Of a stretch of DNA of 12,120 nt, positions 68-11,274 are shown in pieces. The stretch covers positions 1 through 12,120 of the forward strand of contig JBFGLM010000088.1 in the NCBI GenBank assembly GCA_041576165.1. Reading direction: 5' to 3'. The notes beneath the pieces are model-generated. The model saw only the letters and a program-made list of their open reading frames with translations. It was not told the DNA's origin and made no database searches. Each line of letters opens with the position of its first letter. Position 1 is the first letter of the stretch. The position numbers and the translations under genes are program-made. This DNA is from Acidimicrobiia bacterium (GTDB lineage Bacteria > Actinomycetota > Acidimicrobiia > Spongiisociales > Spongiisociaceae).

Positions 68-1546
68 ATGTTCGAATCACTGACTGATCGGATCACTGGG
101 ATCCTCGACGGATTGCGCGGCCGCGGCCGCCTGGCGGAGGCAGACGTCGACGCTGCGCTCCGGGAGGTACGGCTGGCGTTGCTCGAAGCCGACGTCAACG
201 TGGGCGTGGCTCGCAACTTCTTGGATCGCATCCGGGACCAGGCAGTCGGCGTTGAGGTCACGAGGTCCCTCACTCCCGGACAGCAGGTCATCAAGTTGGT
301 CCATGAGTCGCTCATCGAGACGCTCGGGCACGAGGCTGTTTCGCTGGCCAAAGCAGCCAAGCCTCCATTGACCATCATGATGGTCGGTCTTCAGGGATCA
401 GGTAAGACCACGTCGACGGGCAAGCTGGCCCGGAAGCTGAAGTCTGAGGGCCGACGCCCGCTGCTCGTTGCAGCAGATCTCCAGCGCCCGGCCGCTATCG
501 ACCAGCTGGAGACGCTCGGTGAGCGCATTGGCGTCTCCGTCTTCTCGGACCGCAAGACCAAGCCCACCCGGCTCGTCAAGGCGGCGATGAAACACGCAGA
601 CCGCGACCACCACGACGTCGTCCTGATCGACACAGCCGGGCGGCTTCAGGTCGACCGCGAACTGATGGCTGAACTGGCCGATATTCGCAAGATTGTCGAG
701 CCGGACGAAGTGCTGCTGGTGGTCGACGCCATGACCGGCCAAGACGCAGTCAACGTGGCCCAGGGCTTCCTGGAATACACCTCGTTGACCGGCATCGTGC
801 TCTCGAAACTCGACGGTGACGCCCGCGGTGGTGCGGCCATCAGCGTACGGGAGGTCACCGGATGTCCCATCAAATACGCGGGCATCGGCGAGGGCCTGGA
901 CGACCTCGAGGTCTTCCATCCGGAGCGGATGGCATCGCGAATTCTCGGCATGGGCGATGTGCTCACCCTGATCGAGAAGGCCGAGGAGGCTTGGGACGAA
1001 GCCGAGGCCGAAGAGATGGCCGAGAAAATGCTCGAGGCGACGTTCAACTTCGAGGACTTCCTCGAGCAGTTCCAGCAGATCCGCAAGATGGGGCCGCTGG
1101 GCGATTTGCTTGGTATGCTGCCCGGCGCTCGTTCCGCCTTCAAGGACGTCGAGATCTCGGATAGGGATCTGGGTCGCGTCGAGGCGATCATCCGGTCGAT
1201 GACCCCAGATGAACGTCGCGACCCGAAACTGATGAACGGGAGCCGCAAGCGGCGCATCGCTGCAGGTTCTGGGACGACGGCTCAAGAGGTGAACTCGCTG
1301 CTGAAGCAGTTCAACGAGACACAGAAGATGATGAAGTCGCTTTCGTCCGGCAAGGGCATTCCCGGCTTGGGGAAGCTTGCAGGACTCGGTGACGCCTCCG
1401 GATTGGCCCCGGAGGCGGGGCGGGGCGGACGTCAAGCACGCAGGGAAAGCCAGAAAGTGGCGACTCAGACCGCGGCCCAGCCGTCCTCTCGCAAGGGTGG
1501 GACACCGCGCACCAGCAAGAAGAATCAGAAGAAAAAGAAGAGGTGA
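68..1546 (+). CDS. ffh: Signal recognition particle protein Ffh (SRP54), 492 aa
   Basis: MFESLTDRI start; SRP GTPase motifs [33 protein letters not shown]; Met-rich M domain with RRIAAGSG; Gly-rich then Lys-rich C-terminal tail. Confidence 0.98.
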
Positions 1547-1550
1547 TGGC

Positions 1551-1991
1551 ATGGCGGTGAAGATCCGCCTCATGCGAATGGGCAAGAAGAAGCAGCCGAC
1601 CTACCGGGTCGTGGTCGCCGACTCGAGGTCGCCGCGCGACGGGCGCATCATCGAGAGCATCGGTCGATATGACCCACGCCAGGAGCCCTCGCTGATAGAG
1701 GTTGACAACGAACGGGCGTTGCACTGGCTGGGAGTGGGGGCGCAACCGACCGAGCGGGTGCAAAAACTGCTCGAAATCAGCGGAGCGTGGGCGCGCCACA
1801 AGATCGCCCGGGGCGAGGTGTACACGGTTCCGTCCCGGCCGGAAACCCCGGCCGAGGAGGAGCCTGGCGGTGAAGCACCGCCTGTGGAGGCGGCAGCCGA
1901 CGGTCCGGCCCCTGACACAGCGGCCGGCGCGGAGCAGCCGGACGACGTGTCCGATACTGAGGCAGCTGACGCAGGTACCGAAGAGGAGTGA
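1551..1991 (+). CDS. rpsP: 30S ribosomal protein S16 with acidic Ala/Pro/Glu-rich C-terminal extension (146 aa)
   Basis: [42 protein letters not shown]...[12 protein letters not shown]. Start moved to ATG 1551, after a GAGGTG RBS, rather than the ORF-track start at 1377. Conserved synteny after ffh. Confidence 0.98.
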
Positions 1992-2242
1992 CCGTGAGCG
2001 GGGACATTGTCGAAAAAGTGGTTCGGTACGTGGTCTGCGAGATCGTCGAAAACGATGACGAGGTCGAGATCACAATGATCCAGGAGGGGCCGGAGGACGT
2101 TGTTGCCGAAGTGAGGACGGCGAAAGCGGACATGGGCCGCGTTATCGGGCGGCGAGGGCGTGTTGCTCGCGCGATCCGCACGGTCGCCCAGGCCGCCGCC
2201 GAGGAAGAGGGCCTCAACGCTGGGGTGGAGTTCCTCGACTGA
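1988..2242 (+). CDS. khpA: KH-domain RNA-binding protein KhpA (YlqC/UPF0109)
   Basis: [19 protein letters not shown] (KH GxxG loop); GTGA overlap with the rpsP stop; canonical position between rpsP and rimM. GTG 1994 is an alternative start. Confidence 0.93.
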
Positions 2243-2246
2243 GGCC

Positions 2247-2768
2247 GTGGACCGGGTTTTCGTAGGTTCGATCGGCCGGGCCCACGGCGTCAAAGGCGCC
2301 GTGGTTGTTCGGCCCGACTCCGATCATCCTGCTCGCTTCGATCCCGGCTCCCGGCTGCTCACCGACCTGACGGGCCGCCCCGTCGTCGAGATTGTCCAGG
2401 CAACACCCGACGGGAAGGGCAATCTGATTGTCCGGTTTGCCGGCGTTTCCGATCGCACGGCGGCCGAAGGATTGCGTGGCGCCGAACTGTTCATCACCGC
2501 CGGCGACCGGCGTCCACTGTCGGATGGTGAGTACTGGTCGGAGGATCTGGTTGGGCTCGAGGTGCGGGTGGCCGGCGAATCGGTCGGCCGCATCACCGAT
2601 GTGGATCTCGATGCGGCCCAGACTCGGATCACAGTGGCGCTCACCAGCGGGGGATCGGCCGACGTTCCTTTCGTTGAGCCGCTGGTGCCGGTCGTGGACC
2701 TGATCGCCGGGTACGTCGAGATCGCCGACGTCGAAGGATTGCTCACCGAGACTCGAGGTCGATCGTGA
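2247..2768 (+). CDS. rimM: Ribosome maturation factor RimM (about 173 aa)
   Basis: VGSIGRAHGVKGAVVV, DRTAAEGLRG, EYWSEDLVGLEV, VPFVEPLVPVVD. Start placed at GTG 2247, just after the khpA stop. Synteny. Confidence 0.95.
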   Translation: MDRVFVGSIGRAHGVKGAVVVRPDSDHPARFDPGSRLLTDLTGRPVVEIVQATPDGKGNLIVRFAGVSDRTAAEGLRGAELFITAGDRRPLSDGEYWSEDLVGLEVRVAGESVGRITDVDLDAAQTRITVALTSGGSADVPFVEPLVPVVDLIAGYVEIADVEGLLTETRGRS

Positions 2769-4268: not shown

Positions 4269-5294
4269 TCACGCCGGCACGGGGTCGGGCAGCCGTCCCA
4301 GGCGTTCGATCAGATCCACAACCCGGTTCGAATAACCCCATTCGTTGTCGTACCACGACATGACCTTGATCAGGTTGTCTCCGAGCACTTGCGTCGCGTT
4401 GGCATCGAATATGCTCGAGTGCGGGTTGCCGATGATGTCGGTGGACACCAGCGGCTCCTCTGAATATTCGAGGATGCCGCGCATGTCGCCCTGCGCAGCA
4501 TTGCGCACCGCTTCGCGGATCCGGTCCGCATCGACCGGCTGCTCGACCTCGACCACCAGATCGACGGTGCTTCCGTCGGGCACCGGCACCCGCATGGCCA
4601 TCCCGTCCAGCTTGCCCTGCAGCTTGGGGAGCACCTCGCCAACCGCCTTGGCTGCGCCGGTGGTCGTCGGGATGATGTTCTCGGTGGCGGCTCTCGACCG
4701 GCGTAGATCCTTGTGGGGCACATCGGCCAGCCGCTGGTCATTGGTGTATGCGTGTACGGTTGTCATGACACCGCGTTTGATGCCGAACGAGTCGTCCAGC
4801 ACCTTGGCGAGCGGCGCCAGACAATTCGTGGTGCACGACGCATTCGAGACGATCCGGTCGGAGGCGTCCAATTCCTCATCATTGACGCCCAGGACAACTG
4901 TGGCGTCGATTTCGTCCTTGGCGGGAACCGTCAGCAACACCCGCTTGGCGCCTGCCTCCAGATGTTTCTCCAACGACGCCCGGTCGCGGAAGACGCCCGT
5001 TGATTCCACTACGACATCCACGTCCAAGTCCCGCCACGGCAGCTGGGCCGGATCACGTTCCATCAACATCTGGACGTGGTGCCCGCCCACGGTCATCACT
5101 CCTTCGCCCAGCGTCACCTTCGAATCGAGTGCGCCCATCACGGTGTCGTAGCGAAGCAGGTATGCGAGCACCTCATCATCGGCCAGGTCGTTGATCGCCA
5201 CCACATCGATGTCGCTGTCCTGACGCTCCATGATGATCCTGAACACAGCGCGGCCAATTCGGCCGAACCCGTTGATTGCGACCCGGGTCGTCAT
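4269..5294 (-). CDS. gap: Type I glyceraldehyde-3-phosphate dehydrogenase, catalytically intact (341 aa), probably NAD-preferring
   Basis: INGFGRIGR, AINDL, ESTG, NASCTTNCLAP (catalytic Cys codon TGC at 4833-4835), TTVHAYT, IPTTTGAA, RVP, WYDNEWGYS. ATG 5294 is preceded by GAGGAGG. Confidence 0.97.
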   Translation of the reverse strand: MTTRVAINGFGRIGRAVFRIIMERQDSDIDVVAINDLADDEVLAYLLRYDTVMGALDSKVTLGEGVMTVGGHHVQMLMERDPAQLPWRDLDVDVVVESTGVFRDRASLEKHLEAGAKRVLLTVPAKDEIDATVVLGVNDEELDASDRIVSNASCTTNCLAPLAKVLDDSFGIKRGVMTTVHAYTNDQRLADVPHKDLRRSRAATENIIPTTTGAAKAVGEVLPKLQGKLDGMAMRVPVPDGSTVDLVVEVEQPVDADRIREAVRNAAQGDMRGILEYSEEPLVSTDIIGNPHSSIFDANATQVLGDNLIKVMSWYDNEWGYSNRVVDLIERLGRLPDPVPA

Positions 5295-6310
5295 GCTGGT
5301 ACCTCCTCGAGCTGTGACAGCAATTCGAGTGTCTCCACGATCCGCACGGAATACCCCCAACCGTTGTCGAACCACACGATGAATTTGACCATGGTCTCTG
5401 CCATCGTCATGGTTGCCAGGCTGTCGTAGATACCTGAGTGCTGGCTGCCCCACACGTCGGTCGAAACGATCGGGTCGATCTGATACTCGAGGATGCCGGC
5501 GTATTTGCCCTGGGCCGCGGCCCGCACTGCTTCGTTTACCTCGTCCTTGGTGGCCGCACGTTTGAAAATCGCGACCGCGTCGACCGTCGATCCGTTTTCG
5601 ACCGGGACGTTCAGCGCCATCGCCGACAGCTTCCCGGCCAGCTGCGGAAACACTTGGGACAGGATCTCGGGTGAGTTGGTCTCGGCCGGGATGATGTTCT
5701 CACCTGCGGCCCGGCTCGTCCGGAAGCCCTCGGTCGGGACGTCGGCGAGGCGCTCACGATTGGTATACGCATGCACGGTCGTGAAGAACATCCGCTCGAT
5801 TCCGAACTCCGAATCGAGCACGTCCAGCACCGGGGCCAGCGCATTAGACGTGTTGGAGCCCATCGCGATGATCCGGTTCTCCGGTGTCACAACCTCGTCG
5901 TTCACCCCCTTCAACAGGATCGGCAGATCGTTGGGATCTTCGGGCGTCGACGCCAGGATGACCCGACCTGCACCGCGTTCGAGGTGTTTCTCACACCAGG
6001 CCCGCGTGCGGTACTTGCCCGTCGCTTCTACCACTGTCGACACACCGAGATCGCTCCAGTCAACGCCGCCAGGTTCACGGACGTTCACGATCGGGATTCG
6101 GGCGTCTTCCACTACCAGGGTGCTGCCATCGAGGGAGACCGTCTTCGAGAAGCGTCCGTAGATCGAGTCGTACTTGAGCAGATAGGCCAGCGCTTCGGGT
6201 TCGGCGACGTCGACAATCGCTCCCACCTTGGGGCCGTCGGCCGCATTCAGCAGCCGGAAAACGTTGCGGCCGATCCGGCCAAACCCCATGAGGCCGATTT
6301 GTTGCGCCAC
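5291..6310 (-). CDS. GAPDH-like protein lacking the catalytic cysteine (339 aa); probable pseudoenzyme or non-catalytic GAPDH paralogue
   Basis: Collinear with gap over its full length (MGFGRIGR, YLLKYDS, EATG, TTVHAYTN, RLADVP, WFDNGWGYS), but the active-site motif reads MGSNTSNALAP. GTG 6310 is preceded by GAGGTG. The stop overlaps the gap start (ATGA). Confidence 0.9.
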   Translation of the reverse strand: MAQQIGLMGFGRIGRNVFRLLNAADGPKVGAIVDVAEPEALAYLLKYDSIYGRFSKTVSLDGSTLVVEDARIPIVNVREPGGVDWSDLGVSTVVEATGKYRTRAWCEKHLERGAGRVILASTPEDPNDLPILLKGVNDEVVTPENRIIAMGSNTSNALAPVLDVLDSEFGIERMFFTTVHAYTNRERLADVPTEGFRTSRAAGENIIPAETNSPEILSQVFPQLAGKLSAMALNVPVENGSTVDAVAIFKRAATKDEVNEAVRAAAQGKYAGILEYQIDPIVSTDVWGSQHSGIYDSLATMTMAETMVKFIVWFDNGWGYSVRIVETLELLSQLEEVPA

Positions 6311-6339
6311 GGTCACCTCGCAGATTTGAAGAATCGCCG

Positions 6340-6345
6340 ACAGTA
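6340..6345 (-). promoter_or_regulatory. Putative -10 element for the gap-like/gap operon
   Basis: TACTGT (TAnnnT) on the minus strand in a locally AT-richer stretch about 30 nt upstream of GTG 6310 and its GAGGTG RBS. Confidence 0.35.
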
Positions 6346-6399
6346 CTACACAAATCCTCCGCTCTTGCCGGGTCGGTTGTCCCGGCGATTTCGGATCCG

Positions 6400-6408
6400 T
6401 GATAGCGT
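6400..6408 (+). promoter_or_regulatory. Putative extended -10 promoter for a leaderless or near-leaderless cofG transcript
   Basis: TGA-TAGCGT (TGn-TAnnnT) 8 nt upstream of ATG 6417, with no Shine-Dalgarno. Confidence 0.45.
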
Positions 6409-6416
6409 CCCGGGCC

Positions 6417-7553
6417 ATGGCTCACCCGGCACCCGACCGTGCGCTGGCGATCGATTATCTCGATGGCGTCGTCGACGCCCGTCCCCTGTTTGCCGAGGCA
6501 ACGCGCCTACGCGATGAGGGTAAGGGCCGTACCATCACCTTCAGCCCCAAGGTCTTCGTCCCCTTGACCACCCTCTGCAACGACATCTGTTCCTACTGCA
6601 CGTTTGCCAAACCGCCCGGCGCGGGCGGTCAGTATCTCGAGCCGGAAGACGTTGCCGCCATCGTGGGCGCGGGCGACCGCGCCCGCTGTACGGAGGCACT
6701 TTTCACGTTGGGTGACCGTCCGGAGGCTCGCTGGCCGGCGGCCCGGGCTTGGCTCGACGCGCACAATTATGCCTCGACGCTGGATTACGTCCGGGCCATG
6801 TCCGAGCTGGTGGTCGAGACGAGCGGTCTCTTCCCGCATGCCAACCCCGGCGTGATGGACGATGCCGCAGTGGAGATGCTGCGACCGACCAATGTCTCGA
6901 TGGGCCTGATGCTCGAGAACATTTCTCCCCGCTTGACCGAACCGGGCATGCCGCATCACGGCAGCCCCGACAAGGACCCGCAGGTCCGGGTAGCGACGAT
7001 CGAAGCCGCCGGGCGGCAGCACGTTCCATTCACCTCAGGAATCCTCGTCGGCATCGGTGAGACGAACGAGGAGATCGTCGACAGCCTCTTGGCGCTGGCC
7101 GAGCTCCACCAGCGATGGGGCCACATTCAAGAGATCATCGTCCAGAACTTCCGAGCCAAGGCCGATACTCGCATGCGGCGTTCGGCCGAACCGGTGCCTT
7201 ATTGGTTCGCCCGGGTGATTGCGATCGCCCGCTGGATCCTGGGGCCGGAGATGAACCTGCAGGTGCCGCCCAACCTGACCGAGAGCTATGAGACCTATCT
7301 GGCGGCCGGTATCAATGACTGGGGCGGGGTTTCGCCGCTGACAATCGACTGGGTCAATCCCGAGGCGCCGTGGCCGCATCTCACGGAACTCCGCCGTCGG
7401 ACCGCGACCGCCGGCTTCCGCCTCCGGCCACGTTTGCCTGTGTACCCGGAGTTCATTTCTGAGCATTGGGTCGACGCCCGGCTGTTGCGCCGGGTCGACG
7501 CCGCGGTGGACGCTGACGGATATGCAGCCGCCCCCCAGGCGGCGGGGGTGTAG
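6417..7553 (+). CDS. cofG: 7,8-didemethyl-8-hydroxy-5-deazariboflavin (FO) synthase subunit CofG, radical SAM (F420 biosynthesis)
   Basis: TFSPKVFVPLTTLCNDICSYCTF (CxxxCxxC at 6576-6599), EALFTLGDRPE, LFPHANPG, SMGLMLE, PDKDP, FTSGILVGIGET, HIQEIIVQNFRAK, AGINDWGGVSP, NPEAPWP. GTG 6399 is an alternative start. Confidence 0.95.
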   Translation: MAHPAPDRALAIDYLDGVVDARPLFAEATRLRDEGKGRTITFSPKVFVPLTTLCNDICSYCTFAKPPGAGGQYLEPEDVAAIVGAGDRARCTEALFTLGDRPEARWPAARAWLDAHNYASTLDYVRAMSELVVETSGLFPHANPGVMDDAAVEMLRPTNVSMGLMLENISPRLTEPGMPHHGSPDKDPQVRVATIEAAGRQHVPFTSGILVGIGETNEEIVDSLLALAELHQRWGHIQEIIVQNFRAKADTRMRRSAEPVPYWFARVIAIARWILGPEMNLQVPPNLTESYETYLAAGINDWGGVSPLTIDWVNPEAPWPHLTELRRRTATAGFRLRPRLPVYPEFISEHWVDARLLRRVDAAVDADGYAAAPQAAGV

Positions 7554-7556
7554 CGA

Positions 7557-9449
7557 ATGGAGCGCTCAGTGAAAGATGACAGTGCGGTCAGAGTGACGTT
7601 TCTGCGGATGCGGCCGGTTGAGACCATCAACGAGCTGACGGCCGGCACCCGGCGTCGAGAAGGCACGACCACGGTTGAGCTGGCTGTACCCGACGTAGCC
7701 GGCGTGGCCGCGGCGGTCCGGGGCGGGCTGCTCCCGGTGTCGGTGGGCGAAGAGTCGGTGGATGCCGCTGCGTGGGTGATCGAGCCCGAGCAGGCAGCTG
7801 CGCTCGTCAAACGCCGGGTAGAGCCTTGGCGGGTCACCGTGATCGACTCGGGTCCCCGAGCCGCGGTGCTGGACGCGGTTGCCCGTACCCAAGCGGCGTA
7901 CCTGCGCACCGGTCGCAGCCGCATCACGGAGGCGGTCGACCTGGCCGGTCTGCCGGCCATCCCCACCGTGGTGTCGGTGTTCGTGGACGACGTGGAGGAT
8001 GGGGTGCAGGCGGTTACTCAGGGCGCACGCGATCTGCTGTTGCGAGACTGGGACGTGGAGCGCATCGGACAGCTGCGTGACGCGCTCGATATCCCACTGG
8101 TCGAGCGCACGGCCATTCCGCCGGGGATCGCAATCGACGCAGTGCGCGAATCATTCACGCCCGACCTGTTCGGCACGTACCTGGACCAGGTCGATGGATC
8201 AGGTGTCGCCCGGCCCCGCTACAGCTGGGCGCCCGGCCGAGACGAGCCGCCGCCGGTGCCGCCGCGACGTATCTCGGTTGAATGGCTTGACGCAAGCTGG
8301 TTGACGGGGCGATCGCCCGAGGCACTCAGCGGCGCTTCCGGCGCGGTCCGGTCCGTGCTAGAGCGTTGCTTGGAGGACACGCCACCTAGTCGCAACGAAG
8401 TCGAGGATCTGCTGTCGGCCCGGGGTGACGACGTGGATGCCATTGCGTGGGCGGCGGATCAGCTCCGATCGCGCCGGGTGGGTGACATTGTGACCTACGT
8501 GGTGAACCGCAACATCAACTACACCAACATGTGCTACTTCCGGTGCGGATTCTGCGCGTTTTCCAAAGGCCCGCGCAGTCTCAACTTGCGGGGCGAGCCT
8601 TATCTCATGGGCGTAGACGAGGTGGTCGCTCGGGCGCAGGAGGCTTGGGACAAAGGCGCCACCGAGGTGTGTCTCCAAGGTGGCATCCACCCCGAGTTCA
8701 CCGGCGATTTCTACGTGTCGGTGCTGCGCGGCATCAAAGAGGCGCTTCCCGGGATGCATGTTCACGGGTTTACGCCCCTGGAGGTATGGCAGGGTGCCGA
8801 GACCCTGGGCATGAACGTGCGTGACTTCCTCGTCATGCTGCGTGACGCCGGCCTCGGGACGCTGCCCGGGACTGCTGCGGAGATTCTGGATGACCGCGTG
8901 CGGGAGCATCTGTGCCCGGACAAGATCAGGACGTCGCAATGGGCCGAAGTCATGATCACGGCTCATGGTCTCGGGTTGAGGTCCACCGCCACGATCATGT
9001 TCGGTCACATCGATGATCCCGGCTCGTGGGCCAACCACTTCGAGGCGCTGCGCCAGATTCAGCGCCGGACCGGCGGCATCACCGAATTCGTTCCCTTGCC
9101 CTTCGTGCATATGGGTGCCCCGATCTATCTGCGGAGGGCGTCGCGGCCGGGGCCCACATGGGACGAGGTGGTGCTGATCCACGCGGTCGCCCGCCTGGCG
9201 TTCGACGGCCTGATCGACAACATCCAAGGATCGTGGGTCAAGCTGGGTCTCGACGGCGCCGGCCGGCTCCTCGGAGCCGGGTGCAACGACCTCGGCGGCA
9301 CGCTCATGAATGAAATCATCAGCCGTTCGGCCGGTGCATCGCACGGCCAGGAGATGACGGTGGCCGACTTCGAGCAGCTCATATCCGGGTTGGGCAGGAT
9401 CCCCGCCCGCCGCAATACCGTGTACGAGATCCTCGAAACGGCCGACTGA
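7557..9449 (+). CDS. cofH: FO synthase subunit CofH (radical SAM) with long N-terminal extension
   Basis: C-terminal part: TYVVNRNINYTNMCYFRCGFCAFSKG (CxxxCxxC at 8532-8555), EVCLQGGIHP, LPGTAAEILDD, TIMFGHID, EFVPLPFVH, NIQGSWVKLG, NDLGGTLMNE. Start uncertain (7557, 7569 or 7608). Adjacency to cofG favours CofH over MqnC/MqnE. Confidence 0.92.
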   Translation: MERSVKDDSAVRVTFLRMRPVETINELTAGTRRREGTTTVELAVPDVAGVAAAVRGGLLPVSVGEESVDAAAWVIEPEQAAALVKRRVEPWRVTVIDSGPRAAVLDAVARTQAAYLRTGRSRITEAVDLAGLPAIPTVVSVFVDDVEDGVQAVTQGARDLLLRDWDVERIGQLRDALDIPLVERTAIPPGIAIDAVRESFTPDLFGTYLDQVDGSGVARPRYSWAPGRDEPPPVPPRRISVEWLDASWLTGRSPEALSGASGAVRSVLERCLEDTPPSRNEVEDLLSARGDDVDAIAWAADQLRSRRVGDIVTYVVNRNINYTNMCYFRCGFCAFSKGPRSLNLRGEPYLMGVDEVVARAQEAWDKGATEVCLQGGIHPEFTGDFYVSVLRGIKEALPGMHVHGFTPLEVWQGAETLGMNVRDFLVMLRDAGLGTLPGTAAEILDDRVREHLCPDKIRTSQWAEVMITAHGLGLRSTATIMFGHIDDPGSWANHFEALRQIQRRTGGITEFVPLPFVHMGAPIYLRRASRPGPTWDEVVLIHAVARLAFDGLIDNIQGSWVKLGLDGAGRLLGAGCNDLGGTLMNEIISRSAGASHGQEMTVADFEQLISGLGRIPARRNTVYEILETAD

Positions 9450-9496: not shown

Positions 9497-10648
9497 GTGA
9501 TTGTTGCCGACAAGATCCGCTGGCTGAGCGACGTCGAACGCTCGATCCGGCGCATCGCCGTCGCCTACCGGGTGGTCGCCATCGTCTGGACCGGGGTGCT
9601 GGTCCTCAGCGCAGTCCTGACCGACGTCGTCATCCCGCGTCTGTGGCTCGTCATCGCGGCGTGGGGGCTCATGATCGCTTGGGGTGTGTTCATCGTATCG
9701 GCCCACCTGCGCAACCCGCTCATCCTGCACCACCCGGTGGTCCTGGTCACCGACGTCGCGACGGCGGTGGCGGCGCTGTACGTCCCCTGGATGGCCGGGA
9801 ACACGGCAACGCTCGAATTCTCGGCGGGATATCCGCTGTCGTCGGTGGCACTGGTGGTTGCCGTGGCCGGCCGCCGGGCCGGTGTAGCAGCGGGAGGCAC
9901 GCTGCTGGTGGCGGCCCTCGCCCGCCGAATCTTCGTCTTGCAGAATCCGACGCTCGGCAACGTCGTTTCGGAGGTCATGTTCTGGCTGTTCCCGACGGCG
10001 CTGATGGCGTGGGCCGCGATGATCATCCGTGGCTTTGCTCGGGAGCGTCGCCAGGCTGAGGAAGCCCTGGCCGGGGCGCGGGCTGAGCAAGCCCGGCTCG
10101 AGGAGCGCCAGGACCTTGCCGCTCACCTGCATGACTCGGTGTTGCAGACTTTGGCCCTCATCCAGCGTCAACCGGACGACCCGGCAGCGGTAGCGGCGCT
10201 GGCTCGAACGCAGGAGCGGGAGCTGCGAGCGTGGTTGTACGGCAGCGGACGTAACCCGGAAACGAGTATGGCTGCGGCCGTGGAGGCCGTATGCGCACAG
10301 GTTGAAGACCTGCACGGCGTCGCGGTGGAACTGGTAACGGCCGGAGACACGGCGATGTCGGAGCACGTTGTTGCGCTGGTCGGCGCCGCCCGGGAAGCTC
10401 TCGTCAACGCTGCCAAACATTCGAAAGCCGGGTCCGTATCGGTGTTCGCCGAGGTCGACGGCGGCATGGCGCGCATCTTCGTGCGGGATCGTGGGATCGG
10501 ATACGATCCCACCATGGTGGCCGCCGACCGCAGGGGAGTCCAGGATTCGATCGTCGGCCGTATGCGCCGGCATGGTGGGTTGGCCGAGATACGTACCGGC
10601 CCGGATGAGGGAACAGAGGTGCGGCTTCAACTGGCAGTGCCGTCGTGA
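9497..10648 (+). CDS. Membrane sensor histidine kinase (HisKA_3-type, NarL-cognate)
   Basis: About 5-6 hydrophobic segments in the N-terminal half; coiled coil; H-box AAHLHDSVLQTLALIQ; N-box EALVNAAKHS; G1 DRGIGYD; terminal GTEV. Confidence 0.93.
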   Translation: MIVADKIRWLSDVERSIRRIAVAYRVVAIVWTGVLVLSAVLTDVVIPRLWLVIAAWGLMIAWGVFIVSAHLRNPLILHHPVVLVTDVATAVAALYVPWMAGNTATLEFSAGYPLSSVALVVAVAGRRAGVAAGGTLLVAALARRIFVLQNPTLGNVVSEVMFWLFPTALMAWAAMIIRGFARERRQAEEALAGARAEQARLEERQDLAAHLHDSVLQTLALIQRQPDDPAAVAALARTQERELRAWLYGSGRNPETSMAAAVEAVCAQVEDLHGVAVELVTAGDTAMSEHVVALVGAAREALVNAAKHSKAGSVSVFAEVDGGMARIFVRDRGIGYDPTMVAADRRGVQDSIVGRMRRHGGLAEIRTGPDEGTEVRLQLAVPS

Positions 10649-11274
10649 CGATCCGCTTGTTCATCGTTGACGACCACGATCTGTTTCGGGCCGGTGTGCG
10701 CGGCGCGTTGCCGGATGACATCGAGGTGGTGGGCGACGCGTCCGATGTGGAAGGAGCGGTCGAGCTGATCCAAGAGCGTCACCCCGATGTAGTGCTGCTC
10801 GACGTTCACATGCCCGGCGGGGGAGGGGTTCAGGTCATCCGCCAGCTCAAGGACCAGGTTGGATCCGTGTTCCTTGCACTCTCGGCGTCCGATGCTCCGG
10901 AGGACGTGGTCGCCGTCATACGGGCGGGAGCCCGCGGCTATGTCACGAAGACGATTTCTACGTCCGAGTTGGCCGACGCCATCCGTTCGGTCGCTGGGGG
11001 AGAAGCTGTCTTCTCTCCCAAGCTGGCCGGCTTCGTGCTGGATGCGTTTGCGTCCATGCCGGTCGGCGAAATCGACACCGAGCTGGACCGGCTCACAGAG
11101 CGGGAGCGCGAAGTCCTCCGCCATATAGCCCGCGGCTACACGTATCGGGAAGTCGGCGAGGAGTTGTACATCTCGGTCAAAACCGTCGAGTCACACGTGT
11201 CGTCCGTACTCCGCAAACTGCAGCTTTCCAACCGGCACGAGCTTGCCAGATGGGCCCACGACCGCGGATTGTGA
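10645..11274 (+). CDS. NarL/LuxR-family DNA-binding response regulator
   Basis: REC motifs IVDDH, LLDVHMP (phospho-Asp), GARGYVTK; LuxR HTH LTEREREVLRHIARGYTYREVGEELYISVKTVESHVSSVLRKL; GTGA overlap with the kinase stop. Confidence 0.96.
   Translation: MTIRLFIVDDHDLFRAGVRGALPDDIEVVGDASDVEGAVELIQERHPDVVLLDVHMPGGGGVQVIRQLKDQVGSVFLALSASDAPEDVVAVIRAGARGYVTKTISTSELADAIRSVAGGEAVFSPKLAGFVLDAFASMPVGEIDTELDRLTEREREVLRHIARGYTYREVGEELYISVKTVESHVSSVLRKLQLSNRHELARWAHDRGL

Follow-up and report, generated by a model that had tools for sequence, protein, structure and literature searches.

An overlapping gene pair in Acidimicrobiia couples a degenerate GAPDH paralogue to the canonical enzyme and may encode a mixed tetramer

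In the plant A2B2 form of GAPDH (glyceraldehyde-3-phosphate dehydrogenase), both subunits are catalytic, and one of them, GapB, regulates the enzyme through a C-terminal extension. Here we describe two adjacent genes, gene A and gene B, that encode a different pair of GAPDH paralogues on a stretch of 12,120 nucleotides (nt) from an Acidimicrobiia bacterium (contig JBFGLM010000088.1; the whole stretch is called the window). If its products co-assemble as proposed below, the A–B pair would resemble chloroplast GapA/GapB (PDB 2pkq, 7q53), where paralogous subunits share one heterotetramer and one of them is regulatory. It differs in that A has no catalytic Cys, so that only one of its two members has the residues of an active enzyme, and in that a C-terminal extension is absent: A (339 residues) and B (341 residues) both end with the GAPDH core, and A aligns end to end with a 334-residue bacterial GAPDH. 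The best sequence and fold matches to A are the engineered Cys149Ser and Cys149Ala variants of Bacillus stearothermophilus GAPDH (1nq5, 1npt; template modelling (TM) score 0.92, 42% identity). Because both were solved with NAD+ according to their entry titles, NAD+ binding needs no catalytic Cys; they are laboratory point mutants of a homotetramer, however, whereas A is a natural family that also lacks Arg231 and Glu314. Divergent GAPDH chains co-assemble in one cell in the E. coli/rat sperm GAPDH heterotetramer (2vyn, entry title), although this is an expression artefact of two active enzymes and not an evolved pair. A dead paralogue that is under selection and acts through its active relative is described for Arabidopsis PDX1.2 and catalytic PDX1 in the available excerpt of PMC6829848. 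That case concerns another fold and pathway, and such cases are eukaryotic and lineage-restricted as far as the excerpt goes, unlike the A–B pair, which is bacterial, operon-encoded, built from overlapping genes and present in at least 13 phyla. Erythrose-4-phosphate (E4P) dehydrogenase (Epd) is, like A, a GAPDH paralogue whose handling of substrate and phosphate has changed, and in the protein atlas A lies near generic GAPDH and E4PDH clusters only, by their automatic names; A nevertheless falls far below both Epd equivalog cut-offs (241.2 and 236.3 bits; cut-offs 539 and 530.55). A also lacks the Cys on which Epd chemistry depends.

A and B are both encoded on the minus strand, with A upstream. 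Gene B (4269..5294) encodes a canonical type I phosphorylating GAPDH, and gene A (5291..6310), which starts with GTG, encodes a GAPDH-fold paralogue whose catalytic residues are gone; the two proteins are 46% identical over 339 residues in a pairwise alignment. The stop codon of A and the start codon of B overlap in the tetranucleotide ATGA (5291..5294, minus strand; TCAT on the plus strand), the ATG of B occupying 5294-5292 and the TGA of A 5293-5291. A Shine-Dalgarno sequence of B, GAGGAGG (5302..5308, minus strand; CCTCCTC on the plus strand), lies 7 nt 5' of this ATG, within the last codons of A. An earlier note on this DNA, made from the sequence alone, had drawn attention to this overlap and the embedded ribosome-binding site, and both are seen in the sequence and recur in most of the 140 pairs described below. 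The active-site motif of B is SNASCTTNCLAP, with TGC as codon 154 (4833-4835), and Cys154, Cys158, His181, Arg201, Arg235 and Glu318 are all present. The corresponding motif of A is GSNTSNALAP, compared with SCTTNCLAP in a typical GAPDH. When replaced positions are numbered as in B. stearothermophilus GAPDH, as they are throughout, Asn153 of A (AAC, 5852..5854, minus strand; read from the codon and the alignment) stands for the nucleophile Cys149, Ala157 for Cys153, Asn234 (AAC, 5609..5611, minus strand) for Arg231 and Gly317 for Glu314, and Thr-Asn takes the place of Thr208-Gly209. Following the literature on the B. stearothermophilus enzyme, we take Arg231 to belong to the substrate-phosphate (Ps) site. 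GFGRIGR, Asp34 (Asp32), His180 (His176) and Arg200 (Arg195) are kept in A.

Both Pfam domains of the fold are recognized in both proteins (Gp_dh_N, PF00044: 2.4e-28 in A, 1e-36 in B; Gp_dh_C, PF02800: 7e-45 in A, 1.2e-69 in B). With the type I GAPDH equivalog TIGR01534 (cut-off 367.2 bits), B scored 460.8 bits, above the cut-off, and A 306.8 bits, below it; no NCBIfam equivalog cut-off was passed by A, the E4P dehydrogenase models included. A also departs from type I GAPDH in that Cys149 is replaced, with the His kept, and Arg231 is replaced as well. Because Asn replaces the nucleophile and both Arg231 and Glu314 are gone, A is, judging from its residues, unable to run the thiol-dependent reaction in this organism. 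In the whole genome (161 contigs, 96.5% complete, 7.5% contamination), A and B are the only Gp_dh_C genes, and the pgk-tpiA operon on another contig (C50:5041-9165) has a CofD/YvcK-family gene 5' of it and no gap beside it. Since A is the sole other Gp_dh_C gene and pgk-tpiA is without gap, B is the only catalytic GAPDH found in this genome. The A–B pair was also the only Gp_dh_C content in at least three of five carriers examined from other phyla.

Of the 140 A–B tandems that we compiled, 61 come from Acidimicrobiia and the other 79 are spread over 12 further phyla; in all of them A lies upstream on the same strand. Every A gene with downstream DNA visible directly precedes a canonical gap (140/140, at least 13 phyla). 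The earlier note had suggested a neighbourhood survey of whether a Cys-less gap is always adjacent to a gap of the YDTVMG type; adjacency held in all 140 pairs, and the partners carry Met53 in 136 and Thr-Val-Pro at 122-124 in 138. With B starts taken as the start codon closest to the homology-predicted start, the spacing between the A stop and the B start was -8 to -1 nt in 107 pairs, 0 to +3 nt in 22 and 9 to 157 nt in 11; that is, the genes overlap or lie at most 3 nt apart in 129/140, and 81 pairs have the 4-nt overlap of this locus. A GGAG, GAGG or AGGA core was present 5-17 nt 5' of the B start in 110/140 pairs, compared with 10% of windows within A. The overlapping arrangement exceeds chance.

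The tandem is widespread among close and distant relatives. The lineage itself falls in Acidimicrobiia by the names given to close homologues. A gap match was found in 37 of 41 relatives, and the 30 best loci all have an A-type gene 52-69% identical to A, directly followed in 29 by a B-type gene 70-82% identical to B; in the thirtieth (L026), A is cut by the contig end. Tandems tallied from the match table for 201 evenly drawn Acidimicrobiia genomes were present in 37 of the 57 that belong to the window's own order and, in another order, in 25 of the 26 that belong to a family with small genomes (about 1 megabase); eight genomes of that family were examined, and all eight have A followed by B. 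In Acidimicrobiia loci, 62 A and 61 B genes were verified by script; position 149 is Asn in all 62 A genes examined, and Asn149 is combined with Ala153 in 30 aligned A genes and in further Acidimicrobiia A genes whose motif was displayed. Families of the class that have no pair carry a different, typical gap (YDSVHG, ISAP). Gp_dh_C genes are absent from four near-complete genomes of the window's own family (G001, G003, G009 and G013; 0/4); A and B are lost together in these. The four assemblies are 93-96% complete, three of them being single contigs, and are apparently without any type I GAPDH. In G018, a B copy with A fragments at a contig start (C1:133-1788) duplicates the pair at 761689-763693 and is possibly an assembly overlap. 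Unpublished genomes added one pair (G039), one contig-cut A (G028), one pair-less genome (G217) and eight pair-less Actinomycetota; no conclusion rests on them.

Beyond the class, A was searched against 1.84 billion representative proteins, and 21 of the 150 best matches had no Cys at position 149; the cluster names of these Cys149-less representatives include Planctomycetota and unclassified bacteria. Of 8000 candidates scored in a homologue search, 6905 matched A at E ≤ 1e-40. The same 150 best matches contain long proteins with GAPDH-like stretches, namely P0124 (2089 residues, four matched stretches), P0183 (1455), P0227 (1862) and P0242 (958). When species genomes were scanned using an alignment of ten A-like proteins as the query, 80 loci were returned. 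An A-like gene lies directly 5' of a canonical gap (61-71% identical to B) in 79 of them, and the remaining locus is a Falsibacillus chromosome with a single canonical gap. Record titles assign these carriers to Acidobacteriota (24), Fidelibacterota (13), Planctomycetota (6), Bacteroidota (5), Thermodesulfobacteriota (4), Pseudomonadota (4) and Eiseniibacteriota (2). Krumholzibacteriota, Myxococcota, Bdellovibrionota, Fibrobacterota, Latescibacterota and Actinomycetota are represented by a single locus apiece, and there are also unclassified metagenome-assembled genomes. In a scan of 201 Actinomycetota genomes, an A profile failed to separate A (about 480-518 bits) from canonical gaps (B about 460-475 bits, other gaps up to 434 bits). 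Among the matches listed, tandems were seen only in the window's own order; a restriction of the pair to Acidimicrobiia within Actinomycetota is weakly suggested.

The residues that define A as a family are not those that the earlier note had emphasized. That note had taken the missing Cys as the mark of A, a definition that fails in the 25 of 140 A proteins that keep it: position 149 is Asn in 65, Ser in 33, Cys in 25, Ala in 14 and Pro, Ile or Val in one each. The family-wide changes are instead the replacement of Arg231 by Asn (129/140) and the loss of Glu314 (kept in 0/140; Gly in 127). All 140 A proteins have Arg195, and 128 have His176, which is replaced by Lys in the other 12. On a FastTree phylogeny of A, position 149 changed at least 13 times, at least eight of these between Cys and another residue. 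Because the changes at Arg231 and Glu314 are near-universal and position 149 is variable, the phosphate-site changes are presumably ancestral in the A family, and the nucleophile would have been lost repeatedly later.

Conservation is distributed unevenly along A. Across 97 non-redundant pairs, the commonest residue had a mean frequency of 0.58 in A and 0.73 in B. Compared with B, A shows its greatest relaxation in the active-site loop (ratio 0.64) and in the 208-220 phosphate loop TTGAAKA (0.57), and its best-kept region is the S-loop (0.70). In A, GxGxxG, Asp32, Arg195, W84 and D282 vary little or not at all. The conserved trait of A is, by these patterns, something other than catalysis. The ratio of non-synonymous to synonymous substitution rates (dN/dS) was 0.05-0.20 for A and 0.04-0.14 for B in 38 close pairs, and no stop codon occurred within A among the 140 genes. 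A is under purifying selection. The AlphaFold2 monomer model of A has a predicted local distance difference test (pLDDT) score of 91.6 and a TM score of 0.92 to 1gd1/1nq5; the S-loop is its only low-confidence part (pLDDT 53-64).

All 140 members of the B family have Cys149, 134 show the six-residue signature CCHRRE, and Arg231 is found in 139/139 aligned proteins. The earlier note had listed strings shared by A and B (TTVHAYTN..RLADVP, SRAA.ENIIP, GSTVD and AAQG) together with the YDTVMG and LLTVPAK of B. All are present, but the shared S-loop strings cannot serve as a mark of the pair, being near-identical in B. stearothermophilus GAPDH, and reflect conservation of the GAPDH family; YDTVMG and LLTVPAK, by comparison, are marks of the B subfamily, as the YDSVHG and ISAP of unpartnered gaps in the class show. 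In B. stearothermophilus GAPDH, the substitutions Y46G/S48G and Y46G/R52G yield O-P dimers, and D282G, Y283V or Y283V/W84F yield O-R dimers, as reported in the available excerpt of PMC8910861. The YD[TS]VMG of B aligns with Y46-R52 of that enzyme (YDSxHGR), a tetramer-interface determinant according to the same excerpt. By alignment, B carries subfamily-specific changes inside the stretch that matches this interface motif. W84 and D282 are invariant in the A and B alignments alike (45 rows each), and both families therefore appear to keep residues that, by the excerpt, hold the tetramer together; Asp32, an NAD-type mark, is also present in both. The atypical residues of B are partner-linked and lie, within the limits of this excerpt, in or near an interface motif, which fits the suggestion of the earlier note that they reflect co-evolution with a partner.

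The pair seems to be old. In an IQ-TREE analysis (LG+C20 with posterior mean site frequencies, quick search, 102 rows thinned from 422), a branch with 95 in the Shimodaira–Hasegawa-like approximate likelihood ratio test (SH-aLRT) sets the 25 B-type rows apart from the rest. FastTree with all 422 rows gave the B split a poor support of 0.663. A is not nested within B in the tree, and a single origin of A is favoured by these sequences. Identity between A and B is 44.0% within the same genome and 43.5% between genomes, and A-A and B-B distances correlate (Spearman 0.64; none of 500 permutations as high). A recent tandem duplication or gene conversion was rejected, since the same-genome A–B identity equals that between genomes. 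Because these identities are equal and the distances correlate, the pair seems to have been passed on as a unit over a long time, by inheritance or transfer, rather than re-made by local duplication.

In the reading that we consider most likely, and to which we give a probability of roughly 0.55, A has no catalytic role of its own and joins B as a subunit of mixed GAPDH tetramers (A2B2, for instance). Coupled translation of one mRNA would yield the two proteins in similar quantities; the roughly equal output is proposed because the genes overlap or lie at most 3 nt apart in 129/140 pairs and a Shine-Dalgarno-like core is present in 110/140. The nascent chains would then co-assemble into a mixed tetramer in which turnover is confined to the B sites. 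The contribution of A would be its fold, interfaces and S-loop, and probably an NAD(H) site, and A would tune or stabilise B instead of catalysing. Co-assembly, its stoichiometry and any regulatory effect are what we infer from these patterns. Prediction of the A+B complex gave a score of 0.51 (runs 0.51, 0.53 and 0.51), compared with 0.01 for the best of three controls, with 100% contact agreement between runs and a partner pLDDT of 91. Of 80 solved complexes, 58 reached the mark used for this prediction, as did 2 of 110 mismatched pairs, and at a score of 0.60 or less only 7 of the 80 solved complexes and both mismatches did so; the prediction ran on custom alignments, for which these calibration counts hold only roughly. 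The prediction lends weak support to assembly.

Several observations weigh against co-assembly as we propose it. The monophyly of A is only moderately supported (18 A-type rows on one side of a branch, SH-aLRT 73), and the A split is also found by FastTree with 422 rows, at a negligible support of 0.014. The passing complex prediction may reflect likeness to solved GAPDH tetramers, and since all are GAPDH homologues, A-B, A-A and B-B assembly would be indistinguishable by it. Translational coupling and co-inheritance are also found for enzymes that act sequentially and do not bind each other. Cys149 and His176 are both kept in 25/140 A proteins, and the A of these lineages may still catalyse something. 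The 79 loci from outside Acidimicrobiia were picked by A-like queries, and what they show is that A implies B rather than the reverse. A B-type gap occurs alone in five Acidimicrobiia genomes (G029, G040, G030, G154 and G157), one of which has at most a faint trace of A upstream (E 0.09), and in the complete genome G019, the match to A is split into two pieces in different frames beside an intact B. Some lineages thus appear able to do without A. The G019 pieces (G019:C1:3213800-3215750) cover query residues 4-155 and 169-329, and a frameshift or an assembly error would account for them.

These points bear differently on the alternatives. That A does not bind B, and forms its own oligomer, acting in the pathway as an independent protein with no catalytic role (for example an NAD(H) or triose-phosphate buffer or sensor, or a moonlighting protein) co-expressed only as both serve glycolysis, is an alternative to be taken seriously, though we think it rather improbable. 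The kept NAD fingerprint of A, with Asp32, His176 (128/140) and Arg195 (140/140), fits ligand binding; a homotetramer of A would conserve interface residues equally; and both the existence of B-type gaps alone and the weak A+B prediction agree with separate proteins. The spacing of the genes across 13 phyla, on the other hand, is tighter than co-regulation alone requires, and the changes in the interface motif of B, as far as that motif is described in the excerpt cited above, are linked to the presence of the partner. Divergent GAPDHs in one cell mix, as in 2vyn, and therefore co-translated A and B would need active avoidance to stay apart.

An active A with changed chemistry or substrate, such as a thiol-free dehydrogenase or one for a non-phosphorylated substrate in the pathway of B, is unlikely in our judgement. 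It would account for the remodelling of both phosphate sites throughout the family (Arg231 to Asn in 129/140, Glu314 lost in 140/140, and the changed 208-209 loop), for the kept cofactor site, for the Asn that is invariant within Acidimicrobiia and for the Cys149 retained in 25 A proteins. Position 149 is, however, Asn, Ser, Ala, Pro, Ile, Val, Gly or Cys by lineage, and therefore no catalytic group is common to the family; conservation within A is lowest in the pocket loops; A scores under every NCBIfam equivalog cut-off, E4P dehydrogenase included; and no third gene conserved with the pair was found, the largest upstream cluster comprising 3 of 52 loci and the largest downstream cluster, phosphofructokinase (PFK), 9 of 50 loci with a downstream same-strand open reading frame (ORF). 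We regard it as highly improbable that A is a functionless decaying duplicate or an annotation artefact: the absent catalytic Cys and the few lineages in which A is missing or broken would suit a pseudogene, but full-length intact A ORFs in 140 genomes of 13 phyla, dN/dS of 0.05-0.20, a confidently predicted GAPDH fold and conserved coupling signals all speak for a maintained protein.

A spacer of 88 nt (6311..6398) separates A from a divergent cofG-like radical-SAM gene (6399-7553, plus strand) and is the presumed, putative promoter region of the A–B pair; a promoter scan found no sigma-70 consensus in it. GAGGTG (6314-6319, minus strand) lies 3 nt 5' of the GTG of A. Two terminator-like hairpins within A (5793-5820) are not above the number in shuffled sequences (1.6 expected). 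The cofG-like gene is followed by a cofH-like ORF of 630 residues (7557-9449, plus strand), whose Radical_SAM (320-488) and CofH_C (507-628) domains occupy only the C-terminal half, with no Pfam match in the approximately 300 N-terminal residues. Downstream of B lies a convergent M23 peptidase gene. Elsewhere in the window, judging from their translations, we take the ORFs at 68-2768 (plus strand) to resemble ffh, rpsP, a KH-domain protein and rimM, and those at 9497-11274 presumably encode a sensor kinase-like protein and a response regulator-like protein. The loci with PFK after B are L090, L098, L133, L134, L136, L138, L141, L145 and one more, and include Neomarinimicrobiota/Marinimicrobia, Acidobacteriota and Thermoanaerobaculia records.

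A shows three features of a pseudoenzyme partner, namely loss of the residues of the parent reaction, purifying selection and constant co-occurrence with B. The A–B pair would thus combine two known kinds of system, a paralogous pseudoenzyme partner and a heteromeric GAPDH, and is unusual in its breadth and in concerning a textbook enzyme. No natural A-like structure is among the 60 best PDB sequence matches to A, and a full-text literature search, with subscription journals outside its scope, yielded no description of a bacterial GAPDH partner that is inactive or without the Cys. Database names of A proteins are type I glyceraldehyde-3-phosphate dehydrogenase or "NAD-binding domain-containing protein".

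Half-of-the-sites behaviour is classical for GAPDH, and it may be connected with the A–B pair. A further-reaching version of the proposal, which we find doubtful and offer tentatively, is that A–B is an obligate heterotetramer of ancient origin that serves many uncultured bacteria in at least 13 phyla as their main or only GAPDH, with hard-wired half-of-the-sites behaviour: the NAD(H) or ligand pocket of the dead subunit would be allosteric, and its S-loop would be lent to the active cofactor pocket. If this were true, the textbook homotetramer would not be the universal bacterial form of GAPDH.

Bacterial GAPDH, among the most studied of enzymes, is treated as a homotetramer, and here the sole GAPDH of the organism is encoded with an overlapping, selected, degenerate paralogue. 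The recurrence of this arrangement in at least 13 phyla suggests that many uncultured bacteria pair their GAPDH with a partner subunit that is not catalytic. If A and B co-assemble, annotation would have to be corrected, since A named as type I GAPDH leads to a miscount of active gap genes in metabolic reconstructions, and the pair would provide a natural test case of half-dead oligomers evolving from homomers. Models of GAPDH regulation, redox sensitivity and cooperativity would then change for large groups with mostly uncultured members, such as Acidimicrobiia, Marinimicrobia, Acidobacteriota and Planctomycetota.

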